Assembly (NCBI GenBank): GCA_026413625.1
Contig: JAOAKO010000003.1
Coordinates: 2,507-66,506 of the forward strand
Length of the DNA stretch: 64,000 nucleotides
Source: Candidatus Micrarchaeota archaeon
Lineage (GTDB): Archaea; Micrarchaeota; Micrarchaeia; CABMEP01
Reading direction: 5' to 3'
A program made the translations under genes and the position numbers. This document shows, in pieces, positions 1 to 63,675 of this stretch. The notes below the pieces were generated by a model, which did not search any database, was not told the DNA's origin, and saw only the letters and a list, made by a program, of their open reading frames with translations. Position 1 is the first letter of the stretch; the number at the start of each line of letters is the position of its first letter.

Positions 1-115
1 GTCAGCAGCAACGCATCTTCCCCTCCGACAGGAGAGTACAAATAACATCGTGAACCGGCTTAGCTTCCGAGTTCGGAATGGGTTCGGGCGTTTCCCGGTT
101 CCTGTGGCCGCTGAC
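1..115 (-). rRNA. 5S ribosomal RNA (appears complete; abuts window edge)
   Basis: The reverse complement reads GTCAGCGGCCACAGGAACCGGGAAACGCCCGAACCCATTCCGAACTCGGAAGCTAAGCCGGTTCACGATG...GCGTTGCTGCTGAC. It contains the CCCGAACCCAUUCCGAACUCGGAAG core typical of 5S rRNA. The termini GUCAGC/GCUGAC pair as helix I. It is a GC-rich island in AT-rich surroundings. Confidence 0.85.
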
Positions 116-9982: not shown

Positions 9983-10082
9983 TGCGGCGGCCGGGATTTG
10001 AACCCGGGTTGCAGCCTTTTTGCGCCATTGTATTTATGTCGCATGGCAAGGCCGCGTCCTAACCAGACTAGACTACCGCCGC
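9983..10082 (-). tRNA. tRNA-Gly(GCC) with a 26-nt intron at the canonical 37/38 position
   Basis: The reverse complement folds as GCGGCGG-TA-GTCT-AGTCTGGTTA-GGAC-G-CGGCC-TTGCCA[26 nt]A-GGCTG-CAAC-CCGGG-TTCAAAT-CCCGG-CCGCCGC-A. The intron segment ATGGC can pair with GCCAT of the anticodon loop, which is BHB-like. No CCA is encoded. Confidence 0.8.
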
Positions 10083-29390: not shown

Positions 29391-29483
29391 GCCTCGGTAG
29401 CTCAGTTGGTAGAGCGTGTGGCTGTTAATTTTGTGTTTTATGCAGAAACCACAAGGTCGGAAGTTCGAGTCTTCCCCGGGGCG
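29391..29483 (+). tRNA. tRNA-Asn(GTT) with a 20-nt intron (29428-29447) at position 37/38
   Basis: It folds as GCCTCGG-TA-GCTC-AGTTGGTA-GAGC-G-TGTGG-CTGTTA[ATTTTGTGTTTTATGCAGAA]A-CCACA-AGGTC-GGAAG-TTCGAGT-CTTCC-CCGGGGC-G. Confidence 0.85.
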
Positions 29484-46628: not shown

Positions 46629-47849
46629 TTGTTAAACGTTCCAAAAAGAAGAAAAACATTTCAAGTTAGGGTTGGAGAAATTTACATCGGAAGCGAGCAT
46701 CCGATCGTAGTTCAGTCAATGACAAATACAAACACCGCAGATGTGGATGCAACAGTAAAGCAGATCATTGAATTGCACAATGCAGGCTCAGAAATAGTTA
46801 GATTCACTGTAAAGGACGAAGAAATGGCAAAGGCAGTTCCAGACATAAAGAAAAAACTTCTTGAACATGGTTGCAGCGTTCCATTGGTTGGAGATTTTCA
46901 TTTTAACGGAGACATTCTTCTTTCAAAATATCCTAAGATGGCAGATTCGCTTGACAAATGGAGGATCAATCCAGGAAATGCAGGAAGCGATGAAAGATTT
47001 AGAAATGTGATCAAGCTTGCAATAGACTATGGCAAGCCAGTAAGAATAGGAGTGAACGGAGGTTCTCTCGACCAAAAGCTTCTCGCTAGGATGATAGAAA
47101 AGGATTTAAAGAGGCCAAAGGAAAAACAACTTGGCGCGCATAGAGTTTTCCTTGATGCAATGGTAAAGAGCGCATTGACATCTGCGGAATCTGCAGTCGA
47201 TGTCGGAATGCCTGAAAACGCAATAATTCTTTCTGCGAAAGTTTCCAATGTCAGAGATCTGATTTATGTATACTCAACCCTTGCAAAGAAGTGCAAATTC
47301 CCTCTTCACTTGGGGCTTACAGAAGCAGGAGGGGGGTCAAAGGGAATTGTGGCATCTGCACAAGGGATAGGAATTTTGCTTAATCAGGGAATAGGTGACA
47401 CTATACGTGTATCCATTACTCCAAGGCCAGGTCAAAGCAGAACAGAGGAGGTTAGAGTTGCACAGGAGATACTTCAGACATTAGGGCTTCGTGCATTCTT
47501 TCCGATGGTTACAAGCTGTCCAGGATGCGGAAGAACAACAAGCACTGTTTTCCAAACCATCGCAGAGGAAATAAGCAAATATCTACAAGAGATGAGCCCG
47601 GTTTGGCGGGCACAAGGATACAAGGGATTTGAAAGCATGAAGGTTGCAGTAATGGGTTGCATTGTCAACGGTCCAGGAGAATCAAGAGAAGCAAACATAG
47701 GACTCAGCCTACCTGGCTCCGGAGAAACCCCTTCAGCTCCGGTTTTCGCAGACGGAAAGCAGATCGCAACCCTTACAGGGGACGCAAAGAAGATTTCAGA
47801 AGAGTATAAAAAACTGATTGAAGAATACGTGAAAAGCCACTATAAGTAA
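46629..47849 (+). CDS. ispG: 4-hydroxy-3-methylbut-2-enyl diphosphate synthase IspG (GcpE)
   Basis: [37 protein letters not shown] and INPGN are present. The Fe-S ligands are SCPGCGRT and GCIVNGPGE. The start is a TTG, with no in-frame ATG near the 5' end. Confidence 0.9.
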
Positions 47850-47960: not shown

Positions 47961-50798
47961 ATGAAGAATTCGCTTGGAATTGTTTTAGTTCTTATTTTGT
48001 TTGGGCTGCTGAGTGCAGCTTCTATAGAATTAATAACTCCTTTAAATAACTCGTTTACTAATCAGTCTTCAATAAGCTTTACATTCAACGCAACATTTGA
48101 TGAAAATCCATCATTTACATGCATGCTTTACATTAATGGAATACCAATCTCACAAAATAATTCAGTTGAAAATAGCACTATAACAGTATTTACACAGCCT
48201 TTGAACACTAGCTTTTATCAGTGGTATATCAATTGTACAAACGGTACAGACATAATAATTTCAGAAATCAGAACTTTAACAATAGATCTATATGGTATCA
48301 ACGCCTCAGTGCCATTTCTAGCAGAACCAGACTCGTTCATTTCCAGCAATCCTGCAAACAATAAATTAACTTTGCTGATAAATGCATCAGACATTGGTCC
48401 AGCAGGAATAGACTATTTGACTGCTAACTTCACTGCATTGAATCAACCAGGAATCACACTTGTTAATATGACATACAATAACACAACAGGTTTATGGAAT
48501 GCAACAATTACAATTACAGATGTAAGCATGTTTAATTTTGCACCTTTAAACGTTACAATATTCGGCCAGGACAAGGCAGGAAACGGAATATTGTATTGGA
48601 CCCCTTACACTACAGTAATACTATACAATATGTCAGTTCCTGGAGTTGATTCGGAATGTTATGATTGGGGTCCTGAAATGACTGATTTGACTGCAATTTC
48701 AAACTTTAATTCAGTTAATTTTACGATAGATATGCAGATTAATGTATCATGCATTAAAAACCAGACATTTTTACCACCTTATCCCTCATGGCTTAATGAG
48801 ATGACCACAGTTGCTATTCTTAATTTTACAAACCTAAATCTTTCAAATCCAGCCATAGGCTCAAAGTTAGCCATGTTATCAAATAATATTAAAGTTAATA
48901 TAACACTTCCAAACCAATTTGGCGATTCGAGAATATTTGTAAACAGTACAGCATTGGCGGAATTCGATACAAACGCAACAATAAAATTGTTCCATCTTCC
49001 GTTCCTTTCAAAACCAGAGATAATTTCAGATGCTGGCGCGGACGGTTTGGATGAAGGATTTACTGTTTTATGGGCGCAAGGAAATAAAGAGGGAAATCTT
49101 ACATTTAGGGTTAAAGGGTTTTCTGGATACAATATAACAGACAATGTAGCACCCATAATAACAATTAACACACCGTTAAACAGTTCCTATGTAAACAGCA
49201 CAACCCCGACAATCAACATAACCCTTAATGGAACCAAGACAGCAATAAGCTATTTGCTTGTTCAAATCGATAACACAAGTTATATATTCAATTCAACCGT
49301 GAATCAAACAAACTGTCAGGCAACAGCAGATCCAGAGATTATGAATTGCGTATTCCAAAGTGCAAGCTTATCACAAGGAGGGCATACAATATTCGTTCTT
49401 GCGCGTGATTTCGGCGGTGTAAGCGGAAATTCAGCTAATAAATCAGCAGTATTTACAGTTGATTCCATAGCCCCTGTTTTAAATATTTCAACCCCGCAAA
49501 ACAACACAATTCTTAATTCAGTCACACTTAAAATAACAGGTGCATCAAATGACGCTAATCTAAATTACACAAACATTTCAGTTTACAATAATACTGGGAA
49601 TTTGGTTAATTCAACTACAACAACAAATACATCTTGGGTAGTATATTTATATGTGCCAAATAATATGAAATATAATATATCAATAAATGCATTCGACAAG
49701 GCAGGAAATAACGCATCATATATTTTAGGAAATATTACAGTTAACGACACCACAGCACCAAAAATAACTGCAATAAGTGCAACCACCTCAGGTTCAACTG
49801 TCACATTGAGCGTGACAACAGATGAATTTGCAGTATGCAGGTATGCAACAACAAATGTCGGTTATGAACAAATGCTGAGCATGGATACGACTGGACAGCT
49901 TGTCCATACAAAATCAATAACCTTCAACTCTTCAACTTCCGGAACGTTTTACGTGGCATGTGCAGATCCAGTAGGGAATGAAATGGTTAATTCAAACACC
50001 ACTACATTCAGTGTTACCGTTTCATCAGGTTCATCTGGGGGAGGTTCAACAACTACTGTTACAACTCTGCCTCCAGTAGTACAGCCACCAACACAGCCAC
50101 CAGCGCAACCACCAGCTGAAGAGATACCGGCAGTCACTAAACCAATAAGCATTGTTTCATCAACTGCTTCAACAGCAACCTTCAATTTGAATACTGTTGC
50201 TGGAGAACCACTGATCATAGATGTTGCAAAATTGGCGGAAGGAGTGGCACAGGCGACTGGAATATCTAAGATTTCCATTACAACATCATCCGCGGTTTCA
50301 AATGTGCAGTTTTCAATAAAACCAGTTGAAAAACCAGCATCCATTCAAGAGCCGGCAAAGAAGGTCCTTAATTATATAGAAATCAATTTCGGAACCTCAA
50401 GCCAGGCTGTTCAAAGCGCAAAGATAACATTTACATTAAAGAAATCAGATATATCAAAGCAGAATGTAGATGCAGATACTATTAAGCTATTGAGATATGC
50501 GAACGGACAATGGCAGGAGCTTCAAACTGAGAAGGGATTCGAGGACATTGAATCCATAACATTCGAAGCAACGACTCCAGGATTCAGCTACTTTGCAATT
50601 GCAGGTGAAGAAATCAAAGCTCCAGCGGAGGCTCCAAAGATAACGACTACAAAAGCTGGCGAAGAAAAAGAATCAGGTTTAATCCAAATTCCTGAGCAAA
50701 AGAAGGAGAGTCCGTTAGGACTAATCCTTTTGATAGCAGTAATCCTTATAATAGGATACATTGTTCTCAGCAGCCAGAAGCCATGGAAGACAAAGTAA
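47961..50798 (+). CDS. large N-glycosylation-sequon-rich surface (S-layer-like) protein with C-terminal TM anchor
   Basis: It has a signal peptide and repeated Ig-like modules that begin xAPxIxI..P.N.S. By eye I count at least ~25 N-x-S/T sequons in the first ~350 aa. A Pro/Thr linker PPVVQPPTQPPAQPP follows. A segment ending TTPGFSYFAIAG resembles the PGF-pre-PGF domain. The C-terminal TM is LGLILLIAVILIIGYIVL. Confidence 0.8.
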   Translation: MKNSLGIVLVLILFGLLSAASIELITPLNNSFTNQSSISFTFNATFDENPSFTCMLYINGIPISQNNSVENSTITVFTQPLNTSFYQWYINCTNGTDIIISEIRTLTIDLYGINASVPFLAEPDSFISSNPANNKLTLLINASDIGPAGIDYLTANFTALNQPGITLVNMTYNNTTGLWNATITITDVSMFNFAPLNVTIFGQDKAGNGILYWTPYTTVILYNMSVPGVDSECYDWGPEMTDLTAISNFNSVNFTIDMQINVSCIKNQTFLPPYPSWLNEMTTVAILNFTNLNLSNPAIGSKLAMLSNNIKVNITLPNQFGDSRIFVNSTALAEFDTNATIKLFHLPFLSKPEIISDAGADGLDEGFTVLWAQGNKEGNLTFRVKGFSGYNITDNVAPIITINTPLNSSYVNSTTPTINITLNGTKTAISYLLVQIDNTSYIFNSTVNQTNCQATADPEIMNCVFQSASLSQGGHTIFVLARDFGGVSGNSANKSAVFTVDSIAPVLNISTPQNNTILNSVTLKITGASNDANLNYTNISVYNNTGNLVNSTTTTNTSWVVYLYVPNNMKYNISINAFDKAGNNASYILGNITVNDTTAPKITAISATTSGSTVTLSVTTDEFAVCRYATTNVGYEQMLSMDTTGQLVHTKSITFNSSTSGTFYVACADPVGNEMVNSNTTTFSVTVSSGSSGGGSTTTVTTLPPVVQPPTQPPAQPPAEEIPAVTKPISIVSSTASTATFNLNTVAGEPLIIDVAKLAEGVAQATGISKISITTSSAVSNVQFSIKPVEKPASIQEPAKKVLNYIEINFGTSSQAVQSAKITFTLKKSDISKQNVDADTIKLLRYANGQWQELQTEKGFEDIESITFEATTPGFSYFAIAGEEIKAPAEAPKITTTKAGEEKESGLIQIPEQKKESPLGLILLIAVILIIGYIVLSSQKPWKTK

Positions 50799-50943: not shown

Positions 50944-51816
50944 ATGGAGATACTTATTGCTGAACCCAAGGGTTTTTGTTTTGGCGTAAAAAGATCAATA
51001 GATATGGTTGAAAAGGCGCTTAAAGAAGGAAAGAAAAATATTCAAATATTTGGGCCGATTGTCCATAACCCTCAGCAGATAAAGCTTCTTGAGGAAAAAG
51101 GAGTAAAAATGGTTAATTCAATTGATGAGATTCAGCCCGGAACTGTATTCGTAAGGGCGCACGGCGTATCCCCAGAAGTCTTTAGGAAGCTTAAAGAGAA
51201 GGGAGTGGTAGATATAATAGACGCAACGTGCCCATTTGTAAAGGTTGAGCAAGAATATGCAAAGAAGCTTGCAGAAGAAGGCTACCAGGTAATAATCATT
51301 GGAGAGAAAAACCATCCAGAAGCGTTAGGAGCACAGGGATATGCACCAGGTTCAATAATAATCGGAAGTGTGGAGGAAGCAAGGGCACTGAAAGAAGTCC
51401 CTAAAATCGGCGCGGTAGTTCAGACAACTCTAGAGCCAGAGGCAGTTGATGATATAGTGGCGGAACTTTATCACAAGGCAAAGGAGGTAAGGGTGTTCAA
51501 TACAATCTGCCAATCAACAAAAATGAGGCAGCCTGCAGCGAAGAAAGTAGCAGAGCAGGTTGATCTTATGATAGTTGTAGGGGGCAAGAACAGCGGAAAT
51601 ACGAGAAGGCTTGCAGAGGTGTGCAGCAGAATAAAGCCAACATATCATATAGAAACAGCTGCAGAACTAAAGAAAGAGTGGTTTGAAGGAATGAAAAAGG
51701 TAGGGATAAGCGCAGGGGCTTCAACACCTGAATTCATAATAGACGAAGTAATAGAGGCCATTAAGAAAATGGATGGGAGCTCAAAGAAAACAAGCAAAAA
51801 GAAAAGTGAAAAATAA
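50944..51816 (+). CDS. ispH: 4-hydroxy-3-methylbut-2-enyl diphosphate reductase IspH (LytB)
   Basis: PKGFCFGVKRSIDMVEKAL, GPIVHNPQ, DATCPFV, NTICQSTKMRQ and VVGGKNSGNTRRL are present. All three Cys ligands are there. Confidence 0.9.
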   Translation: MEILIAEPKGFCFGVKRSIDMVEKALKEGKKNIQIFGPIVHNPQQIKLLEEKGVKMVNSIDEIQPGTVFVRAHGVSPEVFRKLKEKGVVDIIDATCPFVKVEQEYAKKLAEEGYQVIIIGEKNHPEALGAQGYAPGSIIIGSVEEARALKEVPKIGAVVQTTLEPEAVDDIVAELYHKAKEVRVFNTICQSTKMRQPAAKKVAEQVDLMIVVGGKNSGNTRRLAEVCSRIKPTYHIETAAELKKEWFEGMKKVGISAGASTPEFIIDEVIEAIKKMDGSSKKTSKKKSEK

Positions 51817-52699: not shown

Positions 52700-53656
52700 T
52701 TAATCTTTAATTCCCTCTGGGGTTACCTTAAAGACGCATTCTCCTTCCGGCATGTTTGGAGAATCAATCAGTCTCGCTATTCTTTTCTCTTCTTTTCCTC
52801 TTCTTACATAAACACGATAAGTGCTTTGATGCGCAAGCACGTGACCTCCAATTGGAGTTGTTGGGTCGCCGAATAAAATCGCAGGATTGTCCATTACCTG
52901 GTTCGTAATATATACGGCTACATTGTAGGTATCAGCAAGCCTTTGAAGCGCACGTATGTGCCTATTTAATTTCTGCTGTCTTTCCCCAAGTGCCCCCCTA
53001 CCAACATAATCCGATCTAAATTGAGAAGTTAGTGAATCTACAATTATCAGTTTTATATTTTCCTTTTTTATTATCTCATCAGCCTTTTCAATCAATAAAA
53101 TCTGGTGGTCTGAGTTCATAGCTCTTGCAACATGAATATTCTTCAGAACCTGGTCTGGATCCATACCTTGGGCCTCTGCGATTTGTCTTATTCTTTCCGG
53201 CCTGAACGTTGCCTCGGAATCAATGAACAAAACCTTTCCTCCTAGGCCTCCTTGTCCCTCAGGCTTTTGAACGTTAACTGCAAGCTGGAATCCCACTTGA
53301 GTTTTTCCTGAACCGAATTTTCCGAAGAACTCAGTTATTGCCTGTGTTTCTACCCCTCCGCCAAGCAATTCATCAAGCTCTTTTGATCCGGTGCTAATCT
53401 TTGCTATTTGTTTTCTTCTTTCGTAAACCTGATCCCCAGTTTCAAAACCTATTTCAGTTGATTTCTTTGCCGCCTCAATTGCTTTTTTTGCATTGTCAAC
53501 GCTTATATCGCCTATTTCTGCAAGTTCATGGGGTGATGCAGTAGCAATCTTTTCAATAGTATCATATCCCTCGCTTCTAAGCTTTTCAGCGGTAGCAGGG
53601 CCGATGCCAGGAAGATCCTCAAGCTCTCTTACGTACTCTGTTTTTTCTTTTGCCAT
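52700..53656 (-). CDS. radA: DNA repair and recombination protein RadA
   Basis: The N-terminal HhH is [15 protein letters not shown]. Walker A is GKFGSGKTQ and Walker B is LIIVDS. Confidence 0.93.
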
Positions 53657-53865: not shown

Positions 53866-54825
53866 TCATTCTGCGAATTCCAGAATTTTATTGAGTGATT
53901 CTTCAGGCGCTTCTATCGTATTTAGGAACAATACATCACATTTCTTCAATAATCTCATATATGCTTCTCTTCTTACCCTCATTTTCCAATCGTTATTTTG
54001 AAGCCAATGAGGATTAAAGAAATCGTTTCTTAACAGGTGTTTCAGCGCCTCTTCAGGCCCCACTTTCTGAGTTATTTCTTTTCCTTTTTCCCTTCTGAGT
54101 ATTACAAATTTTGCTATGTCAGCGGCGTCTGTTATTTTTTCTTTTCCAACTGCTTTCGCAAGATTTATAATCGCTCTTCCTTTATTATCAACTTTAGCAT
54201 ATTTCATTACATCTTTGTATTCTTTCCAACTCTGACTCAAATCCGTTCTGATATACGTATTTTTTTCGCTTCTATATCCGGTAACAGTGCTGTTTATAAA
54301 TTTAAAGTAAAACCAGTCATCAGCAACGATCTTTGTATTGCTCTTTGTAAGGAGTCCGTAGCTTAAAGTTGTCTTGCCCGCTCCTGAAGGGCCGATTATG
54401 CAGGTGCCGTTTCCATTTACATTAAGCAGGGCTGCATGCGCAGAAAAGATATTATGGTTATCTTCCAATACGTCACCCATCAAAGCAAGCGCAACCGATT
54501 TTAGCCATCCGTAGTAATTGTTGTTTTTGAAAAACGCAGTTCTGGATTGCGGGTCATATAAAACAGTTGGATCACCTTTCGCATCCGAACCGGATTCTAT
54601 TGAAAACAATTTGGCATGCGATCTTATGTTCTCGTCAATAAAAAACCAGTTTTCATCCCACTGGTCTTCCCATTCTTCACTGTCGGAATATAAATGTAAG
54701 CATCCGCCACTGATATTCGCCTTTCTTTCAAAAATTATAGATTGCAGGTATTTTTGATAAATCCTTTCCTTTTCCACAATAGATATGAGTTTTTTCTTAT
54801 ATTTTGTTTTGCTCTTAATTTGCAT
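53866..54825 (-). CDS. HPr-kinase-like (PEPCK-type) P-loop protein
   Basis: HAALLNVNGNGTCIIGPSGAGKTTLSYGLL..KIVADDWF parallels the HprK C-terminal domain pattern H-G-x-l-x(5)-G-x-l-i-x-G-x-S-G-x-G-K-S...DD. The start is the ATG at 54825, or possibly 54885. Confidence 0.6.
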   Translation of the reverse strand: MQIKSKTKYKKKLISIVEKERIYQKYLQSIIFERKANISGGCLHLYSDSEEWEDQWDENWFFIDENIRSHAKLFSIESGSDAKGDPTVLYDPQSRTAFFKNNNYYGWLKSVALALMGDVLEDNHNIFSAHAALLNVNGNGTCIIGPSGAGKTTLSYGLLTKSNTKIVADDWFYFKFINSTVTGYRSEKNTYIRTDLSQSWKEYKDVMKYAKVDNKGRAIINLAKAVGKEKITDAADIAKFVILRREKGKEITQKVGPEEALKHLLRNDFFNPHWLQNNDWKMRVRREAYMRLLKKCDVLFLNTIEAPEESLNKILEFAE

Positions 54826-54944
54826 AATTATGGTTGGAAAGCAATATTTATAATATTTACACGTGTATATAAAGATATCAAGCATGCTAGCAAATCTAGT
54901 TAGTCTGGCATGTACTAATAAGCATTAAAATAAGGTGAGATAAT

Positions 54945-55301
54945 ATGAAGAAATTAGGAGTGTTAATGGCTTTATTCCTTTTAGGAAGCTTGATTTTTGC
55001 AGAAACAGGATCAGCATCGGAAGCAGGTACGAATATTAAAAAAGTTCTTAGCGCAATATGTAATTTGTCTGCCGGTTTATTGGGTCCAATCGCATTTGTT
55101 TTATTTGCGCTTGCAGGAGTTGTTTATGCAGGCAGCCAATTCTTTGGTGCTGAGGCAAGGGCAACTGGCTCAAAATGGGCAATGACAATGATTACTGGAG
55201 CAATAGTGGCGTTCTTGCTTTGGATAATTGGGCCGATGATAATATCTGAATTAGGCGGCGGTACGTATCGTATCGGGACAAGCGCTTGCACTGGTTTCTA
55301 A
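54945..55301 (+). CDS. VirB2/TrbC-like pilin candidate, paralog 1
   Basis: 118 aa. Signal peptide MKKLGVLMALFLLGSLIFA, then a Cys (SAIC), hydrophobic helix 1 (LLGPIAFVLFALAGVVYAG), basic loop FFGAEARATGSKW, hydrophobic helix 2 (AMTMITGAIVAFLLWIIGPMII) and a C-terminal Cys (SACTGF). A strong SD (AAGGTGA) precedes the gene. Confidence 0.6.
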   Translation: MKKLGVLMALFLLGSLIFAETGSASEAGTNIKKVLSAICNLSAGLLGPIAFVLFALAGVVYAGSQFFGAEARATGSKWAMTMITGAIVAFLLWIIGPMIISELGGGTYRIGTSACTGF

Positions 55302-55343
55302 TATGAATGGATTTTCCATTCTTTTTCTTTTTAGTTGATTTTT

Positions 55344-55748
55344 ATGGTGCGCGCAAGGACTAGAATCAGACAGCAATCACGGAAAAATACAAGCAGTGGT
55401 TCTTTGCTAGTCTTTGCTCTTGCTTTTCTTTTAACAATTTCATTATCATTTTCGCAAACATCAGGTTCTACCCAGGCATCTGAGAAGCTAAAGACAACCC
55501 TTTGCAGTCTTTATAAGGATCTGAATTCAGTGATTCCTACAGTTGCGTTCGTACTATTTGTATTGGCAGGAGTATCATACGCAGGAGGCCAGTTTTTTGG
55601 AGCGGAAACGAGGGCAAAAGCAATTTCTTGGTCTATGTCCATGGTTACCGGTGCAGTAGTTGGATTATTGATAGTGCAGGTTGCTTCTGTTCTTATTTCG
55701 AATCTTGCAGGCTACAAGTTAAGCGAAGTCTGTCGAGAGATAAAGTAG
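55344..55748 (+). CDS. VirB2/TrbC-like pilin candidate, paralog 2
   Basis: 134 aa. The long Arg-rich signal peptide is MVRARTRIRQQSRKNTSSGSLLVFALAFLLTISLSFS. It is followed by TTLC, helix 1 IPTVAFVLFVLAGVSYAG, loop FFGAETRAKAISW, helix 2 SMSMVTGAVVGLLIVQVASVLI and a C-terminal EVCREIK. Confidence 0.6.
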   Translation: MVRARTRIRQQSRKNTSSGSLLVFALAFLLTISLSFSQTSGSTQASEKLKTTLCSLYKDLNSVIPTVAFVLFVLAGVSYAGGQFFGAETRAKAISWSMSMVTGAVVGLLIVQVASVLISNLAGYKLSEVCREIK

Positions 55749-55830
55749 AGTTTTCAATTCAATCTATTACTTTTTAAATCTTTTTAACAAATTGAATGTA
55801 TTCTATATAGATTATACAATAGGTGAAGAG

Positions 55831-56181
55831 ATGAGAAAATTAACAATATTATTCGTTATTTCAGCCATGTCATTAGTATTTGCACAAACTACTGAGGTAA
55901 CACAAAGATTGATAGTTGGTTTGAACAATATTTGCGTTCAGTTAACACAGATTCTTCCGATCATTGCAATAGTGCTATTTGTACTTGCAGCAGTGGTCTA
56001 CGGAATCGGCCATGTATTTGGAGCAGAAATGAAATCAAAGGCAACAGGATGGGCCACGTCTATGGTAGTTGGAGCAGTAATCTCCCTTTTGATCTTTCTT
56101 TTAGCAAGGCCAATTTTAGGGGTTTTCGTTCCAGAAATCTCAACTTCTGATTTCTGCACTGAAAGATTCTATCCATACTGA
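55831..56181 (+). CDS. VirB2/TrbC-like pilin candidate, paralog 3
   Basis: 116 aa from the ATG at 55831, which has the SD AGGTGA upstream. Signal peptide MRKLTILFVISAMSLVFA, then LNNIC, helix 1 LPIIAIVLFVLAAVVYGIG, loop FGAEMKSKATGW, helix 2 ATSMVVGAVISLLIFLLARPIL and a C-terminal DFCTERF. Confidence 0.6.
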   Translation: MRKLTILFVISAMSLVFAQTTEVTQRLIVGLNNICVQLTQILPIIAIVLFVLAAVVYGIGHVFGAEMKSKATGWATSMVVGAVISLLIFLLARPILGVFVPEISTSDFCTERFYPY

Positions 56182-56263
56182 TTTTTTCTTTTTATTAATA
56201 ACTTCTTTCTTTTCTTCTATGCAATAACATAGTATTTAAAAACTTTTTAAAGAAATAAGTATC

Positions 56264-57085
56264 ATGGCACTCGGATTTACTACTAGACAAATGGCATACG
56301 CAGCTATAGGCGTTTCAATATTGGTTTTCCTAGTAATGGCAACGCTTCCAGGGGGAAGTACGCTTCAATTTGTTTTGGCAGGTTTGTCTCTTTTTACAGC
56401 AGTTCTCTCATTTTTGATTTGGAAGTATGGATATTGGGCAATACCATACATCACGAAACGTCTGAATATCATTGAAGTTCATGACGGACAATGGGAAACC
56501 ACTCCCGCACAGGATGCGATAGTTAAAAAGATAGGAGACGAGTATTACGCATCTGTATTTTTGCACATAAAGATGTACAAGTCAACTACAGAAAGGTCTC
56601 AAGAAGAAAACATGGTTTTCATAGACGCATTTGAAAGGGCAATAGCAAATATCAAATATCCAGTTAAGGTTTCAACTCTTCTATATGCAAAGGATATAGC
56701 CAAATACAGGGAGGATGTCGAAACAAAGAAATACGAGGCCCAGTTAAAGCTCCAAAGGGAGAGAGAGAAATCAGAGCCTGATGTATTGGCATTGGATAGA
56801 TTGGAAAAAGAAGTGGCCATGTATGAGGCTGAATTAAACAGAATAATGTCTGGAGAAAGGCCTATGGGACTAATTTCATATGCAATGACAACCGGAGTGG
56901 GCGTTACAAAGGATGCAGCCGTAGCGGTTGCAAAGAACCAGGCGGCAGAAATAAAGACTCTCATAGCAAACGCGCTTAATGTTGAAGTCTCATATCTATA
57001 CGGAGAAGATATGATGAAGTGCTATGATCTTGAACACATGGTGCCCCCAACAGTTAAGGCATTAAAGGAATTTGTGGAAGCATGA
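56264..57085 (+). CDS. membrane protein: N-terminal TM hairpin (VirB3-like) plus soluble domain (possible detached VirB4 N-domain)
   Basis: 273 aa. There are two TM helices in the first ~55 aa (AAIGVSILVFLVMATL and FVLAGLSLFTAVLSFLIW), then a ~215-aa soluble domain. The stop lies 15 nt before the ATPase gene. The assignment rests on architecture only. Confidence 0.45.
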   Translation: MALGFTTRQMAYAAIGVSILVFLVMATLPGGSTLQFVLAGLSLFTAVLSFLIWKYGYWAIPYITKRLNIIEVHDGQWETTPAQDAIVKKIGDEYYASVFLHIKMYKSTTERSQEENMVFIDAFERAIANIKYPVKVSTLLYAKDIAKYREDVETKKYEAQLKLQREREKSEPDVLALDRLEKEVAMYEAELNRIMSGERPMGLISYAMTTGVGVTKDAAVAVAKNQAAEIKTLIANALNVEVSYLYGEDMMKCYDLEHMVPPTVKALKEFVEA

Positions 57086-57100
57086 AGGCACATTTAGATA

Positions 57101-58693
57101 ATGTCCTTATCGGGTGAATTGATGGGAGATTTGAAGATACACGATGTCCAAAATACAGACATAGGAAGAAGAGCGATTATCGTGAGCCCCCCCGAACCTC
57201 CCGCAGAATATCTAATGGGAGACCCAAAAGATTCTATTTATTTGGGCAGAACGACAGTTTTTAACGTTCCGTTTTATTGGAACTTTAGACGGCTTACAAA
57301 TCCTCACATAGCAATTACAGGTATAACTGGTTCTGGTAAATCTTACCTAATTAAAACCTTTCTTCTTAGGGCCGCATTGGTATGGAATGCTAATGCGATT
57401 ATTATCGACTGGGCAGGAGAGTATAAGGCGTGGGTTAAGCAAGTAAACGGAATTGTTGTTGCATTGGGAAGAGGATCTTTTCTAAATCTTCTTGATTTAG
57501 GCGGGATGAAGCCATCCGATAGGATAAAACAGGTCATAAGGTCTCTTGAAATACTCACAGATATAGGCCAGTATCCAGAACAGAGAAGGCTAATAGAGGA
57601 AGCAATTGAAAAGGCTTATCTTAATGCAGGATTCAAGCTCTCCGAAAAGGATCAAAAAGACGCGTTAGGAAACCCACTAAGACCACCAACTCTTAAGGAT
57701 GTCCAGAAGAATCTCCAAGAGATGCTTGAGGCAGGAACATATGAGTTTCCAGCCGAGCTTCAGAATGCAATTTATAAAATAAAGAAATTTACACTAGAAG
57801 GTGACGATTATTTTGCAGAACAGTCGACTATAGATTTAGACAAACTCCTCACTTCAGGTCTGGTTGCAATTGATCTTTCCGGATTGCCGGATGAAACCTT
57901 CCGCGCATTGGCTGCCCTCACAATTTTGCAGTTCATTAAGGAAAAGATGAGAATGGAAGGGTGGAAGCCTGAAAAAGGGATAAAACTTCTGGTCGTTTTG
58001 GATGAAGCTTGGAAGATTTCAAAGGATGAAAACAGCGATGCGGTTATGATCGTAAGAGAGGGAAGAAAGTACCAATTTGCATTGATTGTCGCATCTCAAA
58101 CTCCAACAGATATAAGCGAGGTTATTTTTAGCAATGTTGGAACAGTGATAATGCTTAGACTAAAATTTGAAAAGTATCTTGACTACTTGCAAAATTCATT
58201 AAGATTCAGTAATTACATACGCCAGCAAATACTTGGCTTTGGGGTTGGCCAGGCAGCGATATCAATGGCATACGAGCAAACAACTCCATTTAGCGAGACC
58301 TTTATCTTAAAAAGAATTGACGGTGAAGAACCGATAGTGGATTACTTTATCGATATTTTATCCGTGCTAACAGAAGCACAGAGAAGGGATGAGACCATGC
58401 CGAAGAGTTTTTCAATGGAGAGAACAGCTTTCAAGAAGAGATTAAGAGAGATGGGGCTTAATGATCAAAGGGTTGAAGAACTGTCAACATTAATAGAGAA
58501 GAAAGCAAAGCACATCGACGCAATCGAATTTGTAATAGAATTAGAAAGGAGCGGTGTGAGCAGGAAAACGATAACGATGTTTTTCAGAGAACTTGGAATT
58601 GACGACAGCACAATTATCAATATCTTTACCAGAGCAGATCAGAAAAAGACAGGCGCAGGAGAAAGAGAGCTAACGCAAGTTACACTTGAATAG
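57101..58693 (+). CDS. VirB4/TraC-like (HerA-FtsK superfamily) P-loop ATPase
   Basis: Walker A is HIAITGITGSGKSYL and Walker B is KLLVVLDEAWKI (the DEAW form is typical of VirB4/TrbE). Also present are REGRKYQFALIVASQTPTDI and the NPLD-like FLNLLDL. There are no TM helices. Confidence 0.7.
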   Translation: MSLSGELMGDLKIHDVQNTDIGRRAIIVSPPEPPAEYLMGDPKDSIYLGRTTVFNVPFYWNFRRLTNPHIAITGITGSGKSYLIKTFLLRAALVWNANAIIIDWAGEYKAWVKQVNGIVVALGRGSFLNLLDLGGMKPSDRIKQVIRSLEILTDIGQYPEQRRLIEEAIEKAYLNAGFKLSEKDQKDALGNPLRPPTLKDVQKNLQEMLEAGTYEFPAELQNAIYKIKKFTLEGDDYFAEQSTIDLDKLLTSGLVAIDLSGLPDETFRALAALTILQFIKEKMRMEGWKPEKGIKLLVVLDEAWKISKDENSDAVMIVREGRKYQFALIVASQTPTDISEVIFSNVGTVIMLRLKFEKYLDYLQNSLRFSNYIRQQILGFGVGQAAISMAYEQTTPFSETFILKRIDGEEPIVDYFIDILSVLTEAQRRDETMPKSFSMERTAFKKRLREMGLNDQRVEELSTLIEKKAKHIDAIEFVIELERSGVSRKTITMFFRELGIDDSTIINIFTRADQKKTGAGERELTQVTLE

Positions 58694-59144
58694 AATTCTA
58701 AATTATTGCATATCGGGTGATTTTGTGGCAAAAATTTGTGTGATTGGAAAAGAAGAGATCAAAGGATCAAATTACAAACCGATTAGAGATGATGTTGTAA
58801 TCTCATCAATAAGGAAGATAAAACGATTCTTTAAGGTCGCTGCTGAAAATGAGCTTGTAGTTTGCGATAAACATTTAGAGGAAGCAGTGAAAAGGAGAAA
58901 AGAATTCGAATCCTCAATAGTAAAGATAGTAGCGGTAACCGCAGTAATCGCAGTAATTGCAATAATTCTTGCTTTGTTAAACAACTCGCTTAATTTTATA
59001 CCTGCAACAATTTCAATGGTAATATTATTGTTCATTCTCTTACTTTTTGTATCGCTTTTTAGATATTTTCCTTCAGTAGATCATAACGTAGAACAGAAAA
59101 AAGTCATTACTTCAAAACGAAGACAGATTACTAAGAGGAGATAA
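58686..59144 (+). CDS. small membrane protein with two C-terminal TM helices (orphan)
   Basis: The N-terminal ~75 aa are soluble. The TM helices are IVAVTAVIAVIAIILALL and ISMVILLFILLLFVSLF, followed by a basic tail. The start is the TTG at 58686, overlapping the ATPase stop, or the GTG at 58725. Confidence 0.55.
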   Translation: MNRILNYCISGDFVAKICVIGKEEIKGSNYKPIRDDVVISSIRKIKRFFKVAAENELVVCDKHLEEAVKRRKEFESSIVKIVAVTAVIAVIAIILALLNNSLNFIPATISMVILLFILLLFVSLFRYFPSVDHNVEQKKVITSKRRQITKRR

Positions 59145-59145
59145 A

Positions 59146-59889
59146 ATGGCATCGTTAGACAATAAAGATCAAGTATCTTCTAAGGAACCTTTTGTAGAAG
59201 GGTTTAAAATAGATGCAAAAATGCTTAAAGGATCACAAGAAGTTATAGATGCGCTTTCTCCACTTCAGTTTTTAGATCTCGTAGAAACTAAAAGCGGAAT
59301 AGTTGCAATAAATATTGAGAGAAGAGACATTCAGAAGAACCCGTACCTCTTTTCTATAATATATCTCAATCCAGACAGCATAGAGATAATTTACAGTTAT
59401 AATCCGGATGAAAGTCCTAAGAAAAGAAGACTGGAAATACTGAGATATTTTCTTAACATTTTAACGCTGCTTGAAAATGTATATTTCATAAATCATAAAC
59501 AGCTTTATCAGATTGTTGATAATTTCATGTCAAGGCTTTTGGAATATACATCCTCAACTTATGAAGAGTTATTCTCAAAATACGACTCTGTCAGAGAAGA
59601 ATGCGAAAGAATAAAGAAGCAGCTTTCAGAGACAATAGCAGCAAACGAAAACCTCAGAAAATCAAATATAGAGCTTAAGGAAAAGCAGAACGAGTTGCTT
59701 TTGAGAATAAAAGAGCTTGAATCTGTCTCTGACGAAATTCTTATTTCAAGAATCCAAACTTGGCTTGATGAGCATAATTATGAAATAAATATCTCTGACT
59801 TTGCTAGGATAAATAAAGTTAGCGAGCAGAGGGTCGAAGAAATACTTAATAAAATGGTAAGAGAAGGGTACCTAGCTCAAAGAGAATGA
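59146..59889 (+). CDS. cytoplasmic coiled-coil protein with C-terminal winged-helix-like domain (orphan)
   Basis: Central heptad-rich region: REECERIKKQLSETIAANENLRKSNIELKEKQNELLLRIKELE. C-terminus: ISDFARINKVSEQRVEEILNKMVREGYLAQ. It starts 1 nt after the upstream stop, with the SD AAGAGGAG. Confidence 0.6.
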   Translation: MASLDNKDQVSSKEPFVEGFKIDAKMLKGSQEVIDALSPLQFLDLVETKSGIVAINIERRDIQKNPYLFSIIYLNPDSIEIIYSYNPDESPKKRRLEILRYFLNILTLLENVYFINHKQLYQIVDNFMSRLLEYTSSTYEELFSKYDSVREECERIKKQLSETIAANENLRKSNIELKEKQNELLLRIKELESVSDEILISRIQTWLDEHNYEINISDFARINKVSEQRVEEILNKMVREGYLAQRE

Positions 59890-59910
59890 AATATATCTAA
59901 GAGGAAGATT

Positions 59911-62517
59911 ATGCCTGAAGAGACAAAAACAAAAAAGTTTGCACGGGTTCATAGGGCGCTATATAAATTCAATATACAACGCCTATTCATACCAATTAAA
60001 AGATATGCAAAAAAAGCAACAGAGATTACTCCGCAAGTTTTAATCAATTCTATTTCGTCTCTCTTTCAACCTAAGAAAAAAGAAGAAACGAAAGTAATAA
60101 AGCCAGCAAGGCGCATTACAACCCCATCTCCACTGCTTAACGTGATTATTATAGTTTTTCTTTGTCTGATCGCAATAGGCGCGTATTTCATCTTTGTTTA
60201 TTATACTACACCCGGTGTACCTGAAGTTCCGATTGCAGTAGAGCTTTCAAAGCCAAATATAGTGGTCAATGTATTAAGTTCAGGTTATCTAGATTCATCT
60301 TCTGATCAGACACGCTGGTTTGTGCTTCTTGATGTTTTAGCTCAAAATACAACCGAACTAAATTTCGACTTCGTGGTTCAACAGCAATTCATTCCAAATG
60401 ATGTCTACATATTGAAGGTCCCAAACTATCAATTTGCTTCAAACTATCCTCAGTTTTATTCACGGCTAAAAAGTTCGCTTGAAAGGAAAGGTTTGTTTCT
60501 GTCAGAAATTACAATTGAAGAAATGGTTTCTTTACCTAAAACCAGAAAAATCATATTAATTGTTCCTTCGGGTTATTTACCTGCTGTTTTTATAGGTGAA
60601 GAATATAAAAATTTTACATTGAAAAAATTTGTTGAAAACGGAAATGTATTGATATACATAGGATACAAACCAACTGACAGCGTTTTATATAGCTCGCTGC
60701 CAAATCCCCAGCCGATTTCTCAAGAAAAGATTGCAGATTGGCAGCTTTCATTTGATTCCGCCTCAGGCCAGCCACAATTTTTCTCATTCAAAAACCCACT
60801 ATACTCCATCAAATCAATAGGGACAGCCGCTACGCGCCCAATAATTAGTGGAGACCCTGGAGGTTTTTCAATTAAATGGGAAGGAGATGGTTTCGCATAT
60901 TTTATACCTACAACAATTGATTTCTGGTGGCAATTCTCAGGAGAAAAATCTGCCGATGAATTGGCTGACGCAATTATCAATGCAAGATGGGGTTACGGTC
61001 TTTCAAGAATACAAAAAACGCTGCAGGTTAACGGGTCTTTCAAAGGTCAGATTATACTGTTTACCTCACCATTCAGATTTCCAGACGGCACAAGAGTCAC
61101 CCGTTCTTATGGAAAACTATATCTACAGGGAATAAATAAAGTTAATAATGTCACTGAGGCGGTAGGGTCGTCTATATCTGTAAGATTCCCAATGCGGCCG
61201 AAAGGATTGTTGATGCACGATGATTCTGCAATCAATTCGTTCATATCCGGGAATCCATTAGAAATAAAATATTCTTTAAATGAGAATACAACCGAATTGA
61301 AGCAACTCTATTTGTCCGCGATAAACCAAAACAATGAAGAGGTATTATTTATTCCAATTACTGCAGCGCCAGTCCCGCTAAAGCTCTCAAATGCAGTTTA
61401 TAGATTTGACAATCAGCTTAAGAGCGGAGAATATATTTTAAGGATAAGCGACGATAAAAGAAACACTTTTGCCCAATCATATCTTTCAATGCTTTCCTTT
61501 AAGATCGAACCTTATATAACTGATTTCTTGCAGGGAAATTTCATATTCAACGTTTACATTCTGCCAAGTGGAGAGGAGTATACTTCAGTATTAAAAAACA
61601 TAGAGGTGTCTTTAGATGGGGGAGATGTTAAAAGATTAGATGCGACAAAGGGCAGAATCATATACAATGCTACCCCCATAACAGCTCCAGGAATGTATAC
61701 ATTTACATTCAAATTTGGTCCGGATGTAATAAGTGTTCCAGTCCAGTATACTCGACCTGTTTCAATGTTTGAGAGGCCAGAGAATATAGCGATGGGAATA
61801 ATTGCAATTCTTTTATTTGCAATCGGATATTTGATCTCAAGGCCAGAAGCGGTTAAATATGCAATAGACGTTCCAGATTTCCCACCATTGCAATCTATCG
61901 CAGTACCAATAAAGCGCGAGAAAATTCTTGAAATATTTGATCAAGTTAATGCTGACCTGAAATGGAAAAACACTCCATTAACAATAAATGATCTAAAGAT
62001 GGGATTTAGAAAGATAATGTTTAGAGGGAAGCCTTTGCTTGTTGGGGATTATAATCTAGAGATGATTTTAGATAAGCTTAAGGAAGAGGGATATGTAGTC
62101 CAATCGATGGAATATTACGGGCTTAAGCGCTGGGAAAAGGAGACAAGGAAATCCATCTATTATCTTGCTTTGGTAAGGGCTTTGCGAGACATATTTGTTA
62201 CAGAAGGAATTCCATTTTTGCCGTTTGGACAAAGAGGGGATGCAGACACCGTACTTAGTTATGGCGGAGAAAATGTGTATGTCCATATATACGAGTCAGA
62301 TGCGGTAATAAAGAAAGCAATATACACCTCTTCAATAGGCAGAACTATCATTGTTTTTGAGAATGAATCAGTAATGAACGATTTTCTGTCAAGAATACAC
62401 ACTCCGGATCGCCAGAACGTGGTATTTAAACTTTTATTGGACAATGGAAAAATAAGCGTAGCACCTATTAATAAATTTATGAGTGTGCTGCAGAAAAAAG
62501 TAGTGTTTACATACTAG
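59911..62517 (+). CDS. 868-aa bitopic membrane protein: basic N-tail, TM, ~470-aa extracytoplasmic domain, TM, ~220-aa cytoplasmic domain (orphan)
   Basis: TM1 is LLNVIIIVFLCLIAIGAYFIFVYY and TM2 is IAMGIIAILLFAIGYLI. No catalytic motif is recognised. The C-terminal domain contains a wHTH-like ILDKLKEEGYVVQ. Confidence 0.65.
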   Translation: MPEETKTKKFARVHRALYKFNIQRLFIPIKRYAKKATEITPQVLINSISSLFQPKKKEETKVIKPARRITTPSPLLNVIIIVFLCLIAIGAYFIFVYYTTPGVPEVPIAVELSKPNIVVNVLSSGYLDSSSDQTRWFVLLDVLAQNTTELNFDFVVQQQFIPNDVYILKVPNYQFASNYPQFYSRLKSSLERKGLFLSEITIEEMVSLPKTRKIILIVPSGYLPAVFIGEEYKNFTLKKFVENGNVLIYIGYKPTDSVLYSSLPNPQPISQEKIADWQLSFDSASGQPQFFSFKNPLYSIKSIGTAATRPIISGDPGGFSIKWEGDGFAYFIPTTIDFWWQFSGEKSADELADAIINARWGYGLSRIQKTLQVNGSFKGQIILFTSPFRFPDGTRVTRSYGKLYLQGINKVNNVTEAVGSSISVRFPMRPKGLLMHDDSAINSFISGNPLEIKYSLNENTTELKQLYLSAINQNNEEVLFIPITAAPVPLKLSNAVYRFDNQLKSGEYILRISDDKRNTFAQSYLSMLSFKIEPYITDFLQGNFIFNVYILPSGEEYTSVLKNIEVSLDGGDVKRLDATKGRIIYNATPITAPGMYTFTFKFGPDVISVPVQYTRPVSMFERPENIAMGIIAILLFAIGYLISRPEAVKYAIDVPDFPPLQSIAVPIKREKILEIFDQVNADLKWKNTPLTINDLKMGFRKIMFRGKPLLVGDYNLEMILDKLKEEGYVVQSMEYYGLKRWEKETRKSIYYLALVRALRDIFVTEGIPFLPFGQRGDADTVLSYGGENVYVHIYESDAVIKKAIYTSSIGRTIIVFENESVMNDFLSRIHTPDRQNVVFKLLLDNGKISVAPINKFMSVLQKKVVFTY

Positions 62518-62538: not shown

Positions 62539-63675
62539 TTAAATTTTTGAAGGGGTATTGATTAACTCATGGTAAATCTTTATTTGACGTCTTATTGATT
62601 TTTCAATGGAGTGCTCTTTTGCTATTTTAATCGCATTTTCCGCCAGTTTTTTCTTGTTCCTAATGCATTTCACTACTGCAGCAGCGCAACCCTTAACATC
62701 ATGAGGCTTGAATAAATATCCGTTATAGCCTTCTTTAACAAGATCAGGTATTGCAAGATAGTCTGCCCCGGCCACAGGCAAACCGCAAGCTAGCGCCTCA
62801 AGGCAGGAAAGGCCTTGTGTCTCAAACATTGAAGGAAATGCAAAAACATCCGCATTGTGATAAAATTCAACAATGCCCTTATGCCTCACTCCGCTTATAA
62901 ATATGAACAGGTCTTCCACTTTGTGCTTTTTAACCATTTCTTTGTACGTCTGCTCCATTGGGCCGCTACCCACTATCACAAATAACACATTAGGTATTTC
63001 TTTTTTGATCAAATGGGCGGCCTTAATGAGAACCTCAAGATTCTTTTCCTTGACAAGCCTGCCTGTGTAAAGGACTACAGTTCTGTCTTTCCACATTTTC
63101 TTTTCTCCAGGCTTAAATCTATCTAGATCTATTCCATTCGATATGACTTCGACGTTTTTTATTCCGTTTTTAATGCATTCTTTTCTCATGTATTCGCTTG
63201 GAACTATCACTTTGTCGCACTGGTTGTAATACCACCTTAGATATCGCCATGCAACCCTTTTCATTATTTTTTGCATCGGCTTGATCGGCGCAATATAATG
63301 CGTGGCTTCCTGTATGTTCGTATGCAATGTTCCAATCAACGGCTTCTTAAGGATTGTTGCGGCGTAGAGCGCAGCCAACCCCATCGGCCCCATTCCGTGA
63401 GAATGAATTATGTCGACTTTTTCTTTTCTTGCAATTTCTTCGGCATCCGGATACGGAAATATCGCAAGCTTATAAGTTGGATATGGGATAAAGTCTACAG
63501 AAGGGAATATGTAGGCAGCGTCTTTTTTTCTTCTTTTCTTTAAATCTGCAGTTCCGGCTGCAAACACAATTACTTCGTTTCCAAGCTTTTCCAGTCTTTC
63601 TTTAGTGTTGCTTATTGCAACAACCACCCCGTCAACATTCGGATACCATGTTTCTGTAAAGAACGCAATTTTCAT
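62539..63675 (-). CDS. GT4-family (GT-B) glycosyltransferase
   Basis: MKIAFFTETWYPNVDGV is at the N-terminus. The C-terminal E-x7-E motif is FETQGLSCLEALACGLPV. Confidence 0.88.
   Translation of the reverse strand: MKIAFFTETWYPNVDGVVVAISNTKERLEKLGNEVIVFAAGTADLKKRRKKDAAYIFPSVDFIPYPTYKLAIFPYPDAEEIARKEKVDIIHSHGMGPMGLAALYAATILKKPLIGTLHTNIQEATHYIAPIKPMQKIMKRVAWRYLRWYYNQCDKVIVPSEYMRKECIKNGIKNVEVISNGIDLDRFKPGEKKMWKDRTVVLYTGRLVKEKNLEVLIKAAHLIKKEIPNVLFVIVGSGPMEQTYKEMVKKHKVEDLFIFISGVRHKGIVEFYHNADVFAFPSMFETQGLSCLEALACGLPVAGADYLAIPDLVKEGYNGYLFKPHDVKGCAAAVVKCIRNKKKLAENAIKIAKEHSIEKSIRRQIKIYHELINTPSKI

Follow-up and report, generated by a model that had tools for sequence, protein, structure and literature searches.

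The question raised by the stretch of DNA analysed here (the window: 64,000 nucleotides of contig JAOAKO010000003.1, positions 2,507 to 66,506, from Candidatus Micrarchaeota archaeon assembly GCA_026413625.1) is what kind of machine is encoded between its positions 54945 and 62517, where genes for small pilin-like proteins and for a VirB4-like ATPase stand in one run. An initial annotation of this locus, made from the DNA letters, had proposed a domesticated apparatus resembling the Ced and Ted DNA-import systems of other archaea. Our analysis supports this proposal with refinements: the cluster probably encodes a chromosomal, vertically inherited pilus or translocation machine of Ced/Ted-like type, derived from a type IV secretion system (T4SS) and belonging to the core equipment of the phylum Micrarchaeota. 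Eight genes were found rather than the nine first counted, encoding three pilin-like proteins (P1, P2 and P3), a 273-residue protein (p273), the ATPase, and three accessory proteins (p152, p247 and p868).

A motor split between two genes

The ATPase (57101-58693, plus strand, 530 residues) has a VirB4/CedB-type P-loop domain, in which the motifs quoted in the initial annotation are all present: the Walker A motif GITGSGKS (residues 74-81, nucleotides 57320-57343), the Walker B motif LLVVLDEAW (residues 296-304, nucleotides 57986-58012) and REGRKYQFALIVASQ (residues 319-333). It matches DUF87, AAA_10 and P-loop_TraG in Pfam, and its top NCBIfam model is CedB, aligned in one stretch over model positions 251-537 with 84.5 bits, followed by CedD and then by the CD1110 VirB4-like family, with HerA models at about 50 bits and VirB4_CagE at 49.5 bits. 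The CedB and VirB4 scores lie far under the NCBIfam equivalog cutoffs (700 bits for CedB and 643 bits for VirB4 TIGR00929), and the ATPase is therefore an ortholog of neither; it is probably a distinct family within the VirB4/CedB clade. When its AlphaFold2 model (pLDDT 85) was compared with known structures using Foldseek, the best superposition was with the C-terminal domain of Thermoanaerobacter VirB4 (4ag5/4ag6; E 1e-15, TM-score 0.78-0.80, root-mean-square deviation 3.3-3.9 Å over about 400 columns), while DndH-C gave a TM-score of 0.75 and HerA structures gave TM-scores of 0.4-0.55 with deviations of 5-12 Å. The predicted fold is clearly closer to the VirB4 C-terminal domain than to HerA, in agreement with the initial comparison of this protein to VirB4. 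The P-loop domain begins about 45 residues from the N-terminus, and this short lead to a Walker A motif at residue 74 leaves space neither for a separate N-terminal domain nor for a HerA-type barrel. At its other end the ATPase has a conserved helical extension (residues ~420-520, nucleotides 58360-58660) holding repeated helix-turn-helix-like units (..LREMGLNDQRVEEL.. and ..LERSGVSRKTITMFFRELGIDDSTIINIF..), which the matched VirB4 structures do not cover and which may serve in binding nucleic acid or a protein partner. More than 986 homologs of the ATPase were retrieved, with 59-90% identity among the 120 listed, and these are spread across Micrarchaeota (Candidatus Micrarchaeota, Micrarchaeia, Anstonellales, Gugararchaeum and Bilamarchaeum).

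The gene before the ATPase encodes p273 (56264-57085, plus strand), which had been described as VirB3-like on account of its transmembrane hairpin. The hairpin stands, formed by two N-terminal transmembrane helices and followed by a ~210-residue cytoplasmic alpha/beta domain, but the similarity of the protein goes beyond VirB3. Sequence searches with p273 returned only orphans of a constant ~270 residues, in Micrarchaeota only, and its profile matched nothing among the sequences of the PDB. Its AlphaFold2 model (pLDDT 79), with two transmembrane helices and an alpha/beta cytoplasmic domain, found only TrwK/VirB4 chains of the R388 T4SS among its top 10 Foldseek matches in the PDB, all of them weak (best E 5.6e-3). 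A fusion partner of p273 was sought in its own sequence search and none appeared, fused forms occurring only among distant relatives of the ATPase. An exhaustive ATPase search yielded relatives of 813-1066 residues, 30-36% identical to the window ATPase, in which the ATPase domain starts at about residue 280. The CedB model is matched over nearly its full length by four of them; in P0280, residues 42-643 correspond to model positions 13-587 of 590, with 140.8 bits and E 6e-41. HerA models cover only the P-loop part of the fused relatives, with about half the CedB score. When the p273 profile was aligned by hhalign with the N-terminal 290 residues of six such CedB-like proteins, the local alignment gave Prob 96% and E 3e-9 over 232 columns and the global alignment Prob 98% and E 5e-12; an earlier, mixed target set of nine N-termini had given Prob 37%. 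Removal of the transmembrane hairpin left Prob 89%, and reversed-sequence controls gave 0.3-5%. p273 is thus the detached N-terminal half, transmembrane hairpin plus N-terminal domain, of a CedB/VirB4-type ATPase, and p273 and the 530-residue protein together make up one split motor.

CedB and CedD were earlier classed in the HerA clade, and their N-terminal domains are like that of VirB4 (PMC11868833). Both proteins consist of a transmembrane domain, a VirB4-like N-terminal domain and an ATPase domain (PMC11868833), and the same parts are present here, although, unlike in CedB, the membrane and N-terminal parts are encoded by one gene and the ATPase part by another. The micrarchaeal cluster is a natural example of a VirB4/CedB motor divided into a membrane/N-terminal-domain subunit and an ATPase subunit. 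The metagenomic proteins P0273, P0280, P0289 and P0291 (873-913 residues), CedB-like relatives of the ATPase, are unsplit, with the N-terminal transmembrane and N-terminal domains in place and about 240 extra C-terminal residues.

Pilin-like proteins and their genes

Upstream of p273, and likewise on the plus strand, are the genes for P1 (54945-55301, an open reading frame of 118 residues), P2 (55344-55748, 134 residues from its ATG and 137 from an upstream TTG) and P3 (55831-56181, 116 residues from its ATG). That the three are paralogs, as first proposed, is borne out by identities of 30-38% and by scores of 130-143 bits against the family hidden Markov model (HMM), with P1 at 130 bits. Sequence and hydropathy also agree with the signal peptide and two hydrophobic helices described for each of them, in the order signal peptide, Cys, long hydrophobic helix, conserved loop, second hydrophobic helix and C-terminal-side Cys. 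The cleavage motifs are of Sec type (cleavage at the slash): ..IFA/ET in P1, whose signal peptide ends ..LIFA/ETG, ..SFS/QT in P2, which has a long Arg-rich N-region, and ..VFA/QT in P3. The loops are FGAEARATGSKW in P1 (nucleotides 55143-55178), FGAETRAKAISW in P2 and FGAEMKSKATGW in P3. The FGAE-x-[RK] core given for the loop in the initial annotation holds, but the Trp comes after five further residues and not after four, so that the motif in an 11-sequence alignment reads FGAE-x-[RK]-x5-W; in this alignment the loop is conserved and the termini are variable. The quoted motifs LNNICVQ and ELGGG are present in P3 and P1, respectively.

In VirB2-type pili both termini of the subunit are on the outer surface, and TrbC/VirB2 subunits are cyclised head to tail. 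Each window pilin has two Cys residues only (Cys39 and Cys115 in P1, Cys54 and Cys130 in P2, Cys35 and Cys109 in P3), and from this spacing of 74-76 residues we infer a disulfide joining the termini of the pilin, which would be a functional analogue of head-to-tail cyclisation.

The pilin architecture of VirB2/TrbC type that had been proposed for these proteins finds support, below the curated thresholds, in profile searches. T4SS_pilin (PF18895) and TrbC/VirB2 (PF04956) are the top-ranked Pfam families for all three, with 24.2, 20.4 and 19 bits for P1, P2 and P3 against T4SS_pilin (gathering cutoff 26.6 bits) and 21.1, 25.6 and 15 bits against TrbC (gathering cutoff 27.9 bits), all under the cutoff, and P2 matches the NCBIfam TrwL model with E 9e-5. 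In a set of 11 paralogs, consisting of the window pilins and members from three genomes, TrbC is matched by seven and T4SS_pilin by six at E<=0.01, and of the 120 best members of the family some 25, about a quarter, carry precomputed PF18895/PF04956 matches. Among PDB sequences the family profile matches TrwL alone, which is the R388 pilin of VirB2 type, with an alignment that runs through both helices and the loop between them (E 0.016); Ced/Ted and other archaeal pilins were not matched in that sequence set. By their profile matches the window pilins resemble bacterial-type pilins more than those of Ced and Ted. P1 and the protein N3G74_01215 of a Candidatus Micrarchaeota metagenome-assembled genome (NCBI) are 100% identical, and a fourth paralog of the same genome, N3G74_01275 (P0408), is encoded just beyond the window end, ~4-5 kb past position 63675, and carries precomputed matches to both PF18895 and PF04956.

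The spacing of the eight genes, with gaps of 42, 82, 82, 15, -8, 1 and 21 nucleotides in order, agrees with the range of -8 to ~82 first given for these co-directional genes. From p273 to p868 the genes are in tight operon-like packing, with the p152 start overlapping the ATPase stop by 8 nucleotides, whereas each pilin gene is followed by oligo-T. Archaeal transcription terminates at oligo-T. A stem-loop and T-run (GAATGGATTTTCCATTC + TTTTTCTTTT) at 55305-55331 on the plus strand, after P1, is terminator-like by consensus match only, and it is possible that it acts as a partial terminator giving a surplus of first-pilin transcript. A scan for sigma-70 promoters, a model unsuited to archaea, gave no excess over shuffled sequence. 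In another micrarchaeon (L044:10001-12127), four small genes come after the gene for a VirB2-like pilin, and one or more of them encodes a class III signal peptide like that of type IV pilins (..KG/QATLE..); this arrangement would place conjugative-type beside type IV pilins.

Conservation of the module and its accessory proteins

Comparison with other Micrarchaeota loci (labelled L001-L045) showed that the order p273-ATPase-p152-p247-p868 is constant in every locus examined, with identities to the window proteins of 56-97% for the ATPase, 39-95% for p273 and 43-89% for p247. The closest relatives of the window are metagenome-assembled genomes with 96-97% identical ATPases. In the same loci, the identities of the ATPase and of RadA are 97/98, 90/90, 84/84, 84/79 and 76/75%, and this parallel indicates that the module evolves like a core gene and is vertically inherited. 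Flanking genes are shared with relatives down to 76% ATPase identity.

The pilin genes behave differently. In the window's clade (L009-L015) three pilins are directly upstream of the module and a fourth is ~5 kb downstream (L016:10001-10360, also L017, L018, L020, L021 and L023), and pilins are adjacent or nearly so to the module in L005, L006, L007, L025 and L039. In L029-L035, which include the complete genome of Ca. Fermentimicrarchaeum limneticum, pilins are encoded 7-8 kb upstream on the same strand, and in L045/L044 one pilin is 9.5 kb upstream with another copy elsewhere. The initial expectation that the whole block would be conserved in relatives therefore holds for part of it: the five-gene module from p273 to p868 is the conserved unit across the phylum, and the pilins are variably linked to it. 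The recurrence of this linkage in several distinct arrangements nevertheless speaks for a functional connection.

Between the pilins and p273, the loci L029-L035 encode six paralogous polytopic membrane proteins of 313-902 residues (L035:10351-18159), which share the motifs WAKDE-YQA and LLP-G-LLR-FP-R-GG; p273 is duplicated in L035. Six more divergent polytopic paralogs are encoded in L041-L043, and one of the six in each locus matches the pilin HMM. The HMM of the polytopic family has no match in the window, in agreement with the initial statement that a CedA/VirB6-like polytopic protein is missing there. We considered whether these paralogs are homologs of VirB6 or CedA, which their sequences do not support: the family has no Pfam, NCBIfam or PDB match, CedA was matched by one of 33 members at E 0.15, and the proteins are positional and topological candidates only. 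We also considered whether the polytopic proteins begin with a hairpin homologous to that of the pilins, and set this aside because the hhalign score (Prob 29%) is too weak. The constant number of six could, speculatively, mean a pseudo-hexameric ring fitting a hexameric ATPase.

The three accessory proteins p152, p247 and p868 have no detectable homolog of known function in Pfam, NCBIfam, PADLOC, PHROGs and PDB scans. p152 (58686-59144, plus strand), with a cytoplasmic N-domain of ~72 residues followed by a transmembrane hairpin, is encoded directly after the ATPase in every locus examined, at 32-79% identity, and has no family match in Pfam, NCBIfam, PADLOC or PHROGs. p868 (59911-62517, plus strand) is always the last gene of the module, and its orthologs are 25-77% identical; it has no Pfam, NCBIfam or PDB match. 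After a basic N-tail it has a transmembrane helix at residues ~75-98, an ectodomain of ~525 residues, a second transmembrane helix at ~627-645 and a cytoplasmic C-domain of ~220 residues. This C-domain is the most conserved part of the protein, with invariant residues clustered at 646-825, which suggests that it makes a constant cytoplasmic contact, while the fast-evolving domain faces outward.

p247 (59146-59889, plus strand) is soluble and consists of a conserved N-domain, a coiled coil and, at the C-terminus, a winged helix. The last two are the part that matches Pfam EAP30/Vps36 in each of the seven orthologs tested (best E 3.6e-8), and the p247 profile found only coiled-coil noise in the PDB. 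We rejected the EAP30/ESCRT-II matches as evidence of a role in cell division, because the region matched is a generic coiled coil plus winged helix, and the EAP30 match probably reflects that generic winged helix. Some p247 orthologs match ZapB/DivIC-type coiled coils, and one relative has a faint CdvB_HTH match on record; an ESCRT-like winged helix within a DPANN secretion module is odd.

Mechanism, alternatives and genomic context

In the mechanism that we propose, the three pilins and the fourth beyond the window would be Sec-exported, trimmed by signal peptidase I and kept in the membrane as a pool of helical hairpins, from which a membrane-anchored motor would pull them out and polymerise them into a tubular pilus of conjugative type. 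The basic FGAE-x-[RK] loop would line the pilus lumen, and the variable, Cys-tied termini would face outward. The motor would be formed by p273, contributing hairpin and N-terminal domain, and the 530-residue P-loop protein, held at the membrane by the p273 hairpin and probably hexameric. p152 and p868 would make up a membrane platform from which p868 spans the S-layer, and p247 would bridge to a cytoplasmic partner or to nucleic acid. Such an apparatus would most likely serve contact with a partner or host and the transfer of macromolecules, with DNA as the cargo for which Ced provides a precedent and host-derived macromolecules as plausible cargo in a host-dependent cell. The homologies, the split of the ATPase, the conservation and chromosomal inheritance of the module and its recurrent linkage to pilins are shown by the data; from these, and from what is established for T4SSs and Ced/Ted, we infer pilus formation, the roles of p152, p247 and p868, the substrate and the direction of transfer; our confidence in any specific substrate is low, and a role in exchange with a partner cell is speculation.

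Several observations weigh against a pilus-forming machine derived from a T4SS. The window pilins are sub-threshold in Pfam (19-25.6 bits compared with 26.6 and 27.9), and a two-helix hairpin is a simple fold. The fold matches between p273 and VirB4 are weak (E 5.6e-3, TMq 0.29). The PADLOC HerA model scores 82.6 bits on the ATPase, about the level of CedB, and HerA entries outrank the lone VirB4 match in the PDB sequence set, so that sequence scores alone fail to separate CedB/VirB4 from HerA, which fits the earlier classing of CedB and CedD with HerA. No VirB6/CedA-like channel protein is encoded in the window, and an ATPase this conserved is unusual among systems derived from conjugation. 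In L001, L003/4 and L008 there is no pilin within 10 kb, and coupling in gene order is thus not obligatory.

Some of these points would fit a five-gene module that is a housekeeping HerA/FtsK-like membrane translocase, acting in segregation, division or the envelope, with the pilins as mere neighbours: the loci without nearby pilins, an ATPase as conserved as RadA, HerA profile scores near that of CedB, and the matches of all p247 orthologs to EAP30/ESCRT-II and of some to ZapB/DivIC-type coiled coils. We nonetheless consider this explanation unlikely, since the predicted ATPase fold is nearest to the VirB4 C-terminal domain and not to HerA, the ~45 residues before the P-loop core would not accommodate the HerA N-terminal domain, p273 is the N-terminal half of a CedB/VirB4-type ATPase, and the p247 matches fall on a coiled coil and winged helix of generic kind. 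Moreover, pilin linkage is found in at least four gene arrangements, in lineages with ATPases 56-68% identical, for which chance is a poor explanation. The small proteins might instead be integral-membrane parts of the complex, or unrelated small membrane proteins, in a translocon without a pilus. Several tandem paralogs that carry Sec signal peptides, with a terminator-like site behind the first of their genes, make up the usual layout for filament subunits, and a conserved loop between variable termini is as in VirB2-type pilins, and we would therefore give a pilus-less translocon little credence. In its favour are the sub-threshold scores of the pilin family, the frequent lack of pili in the T4SSs of monoderm bacteria, and the weak resemblance of the polytopic N-terminal hairpin to the pilin hairpin which, together with the match of L041-43 polytopics to the pilin HMM, hints at the hairpin as a membrane-embedded module. 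The Ced and Ted homologs, however, do form pili (PMC9905601).

The initial annotation had stated that nothing marks the locus as an integrated conjugative element, neither a relaxase, a coupling ATPase or an integrase nor a flanking tRNA or an obvious change in composition, and our scans confirm this. Relaxase, coupling protein and integrase were not found in the window by Pfam and NCBIfam scans or in the annotation of neighbouring genes, tRNA scans of the window placed no tRNA adjoining the cluster, and GC content is flat at 0.35-0.40. Together with the same flanks in relatives to 76% ATPase identity, RadA-like divergence and the presence of the module across the phylum, this makes the remnant of an integrated conjugative element or plasmid highly improbable, even though VirB4-like ATPases are typical of conjugative elements. 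The same low estimate applies to a HerA-based anti-phage defence island, for which the matches of the PADLOC HerA, mad8 and DndH models to the ATPase could be cited: there is no Sir2, DUF4297, NurA or nuclease partner, and in PADLOC and PHROGs scans of all components the ATPase alone was matched, its partner proteins having no PADLOC match, and we therefore rejected the defence-system and phage readings.

The T4SS-derived pilus machine that we favour can be compared with Ced of the Sulfolobales (CedA, CedA1, CedA2, CedB, CedD/CedE) and Ted of the Thermoproteales (TedA, TedB, TedC). It shares with both a chromosomal location, VirB2-like pilins, a membrane-associated ATPase of VirB4/CedB type and the lack of a relaxase and coupling protein, and the window pilins have cleavable signal peptides like TedC (PMC9905601). 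In contrast to Ced and Ted, the best profile matches of its pilins are bacterial-type (TrwL, TrbC and T4SS_pilin), no CedA/TedA/VirB6-like polytopic protein is encoded in the window, the accessory proteins p152, p247 and p868 are different ones, and the organism that carries the system is a DPANN symbiont and not, as with Ced and Ted, a free-living hyperthermophile. With the R388 T4SS (TrwM/VirB3-TrwK/VirB4-TrwI/VirB6, with TrwL/VirB2), the correspondence is of pilin profile to TrwL, of p273 fold to TrwK and of ATPase to the VirB4 C-terminal domain, and the sequence of transmembrane hairpin and VirB4 N-terminal domain in p273 is the equivalent of VirB3-VirB4 in R388. These similarities remain remote and, unlike R388, the micrarchaeal system has no outer-membrane core, VirB6, VirB8, VirB11, VirD4 or relaxase and is not on a mobile element. 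HerA-NurA and the HerA defence systems (Sir2-HerA, DUF4297-HerA) belong to the same FtsK-HerA superfamily and give comparable sequence scores, and are set apart by their poorer structural fit, the lack of room for the N-terminal barrel, and the membrane-protein neighbours found here in place of a nuclease or effector partner.

A further comparison is with the chromosomal T4SS of Patescibacteria (candidate phyla radiation, CPR), which is VirB4-centred, has pilins recognised by PF04956 and PF18895 and is usually relaxase-less (PMC12102498). It is nearly universal and monophyletic in these ultrasmall, host-dependent cells, and a role in host interaction has been proposed (PMC12102498); tubular structures of Patescibacteria are possibly T4SS pili (10.64898/2026.06.21.733656). 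That system is nested in MPF-FATA and has recognisable VirB3, VirB6 and VirB8 and an unsplit VirB4, whereas the micrarchaeal module is closest to CedB and has no recognisable VirB3, VirB6 or VirB8. Within the DPANN archaea, VirB4-like domains are known from giant proteins of nanohaloarchaea (PMC10266531), and cryo-electron tomography of the micrarchaeon ARM-1 in co-culture revealed nanotubes, a 21-nm docking barrel and thin filaments to which no genes were assigned (PMC11329633); the terms HerA, VirB4 and TrbC are absent from the supplements of that paper. In the literature that we searched, no paper connects VirB2-like pilins or this module with Micrarchaeota or DPANN. What is new here is a system that is phylum-wide and combines a split CedB-like motor, VirB2 pilins that look bacterial-type and three new accessory proteins, with no recognisable channel protein in this lineage. 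Through it, the domestication of conjugation machinery seen in Thermoproteota (Ced/Ted) is extended to DPANN. DPANN rely on hosts, and the molecules that connect the two are largely unassigned; the cluster supplies phylum-wide candidate genes. The parallel with the T4SS of Patescibacteria, likewise without a relaxase, suggests that one general way to an episymbiotic life is to reuse the machinery of conjugation. A bolder proposal, which we put forward tentatively and regard as doubtful, is that the module is the micrarchaeal side of the host-symbiont link, with the pilins and p868 (in sister lineages also the six polytopic paralogs, a number that would suit a ring) building the filaments and/or the 21-nm docking barrel in the envelope of ARM-1, and the split motor driving uptake of host nucleic acids or other macromolecules. 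If this were true, the module would be the archaeal counterpart of the Patescibacteria T4SS, and a hallmark common to ultrasmall episymbionts of both domains.

The neighbours of the cluster are housekeeping genes, encoding TtuA, HAD hydrolases, IspG, IspH, RadA and a GT4 glycosyltransferase. RadA lies near the cluster (52700-53656); we considered this adjacency as a link to DNA repair and rejected it, the adjacency being kept in close relatives only. Divergent from P1 is a gene for an HPr-kinase-like P-loop protein of 339 residues (53866-54885, minus strand), which scores 33.0 bits against Hpr_kinase_C (cutoff 33.3) and keeps its position only in the window's clade, at 48-81% identity (L007, L009-L015). 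At the other end, the GT4 glycosyltransferase gene (62539-63675, minus strand) is convergent with p868 in almost every Micrarchaeota locus that we examined (41-83% identity in L003, L005-L007, L009-L015 and L045). The pairing may be functional, through glycosylation of the pilins or p868 for example, or it may just be old synteny.

Archaea normally make isoprenoids via the mevalonate route. The window encodes IspG (GcpE, 389 bits; 46629-47849) and IspH (LytB, 323 bits; 50944-51816), the last two enzymes of the bacterial-type methylerythritol phosphate (MEP) pathway, which is unusual in an archaeon, and between them a 945-residue protein (47961-50798) with no Pfam match. Rfam detected tRNA genes at 9983-10082 (minus strand, 100 nucleotides) and 29391-29483 (plus strand, 93 nucleotides) that were missed by ARAGORN, which makes introns probable, and a 5S rRNA gene at 1-115 (minus strand) is cut by the window start.

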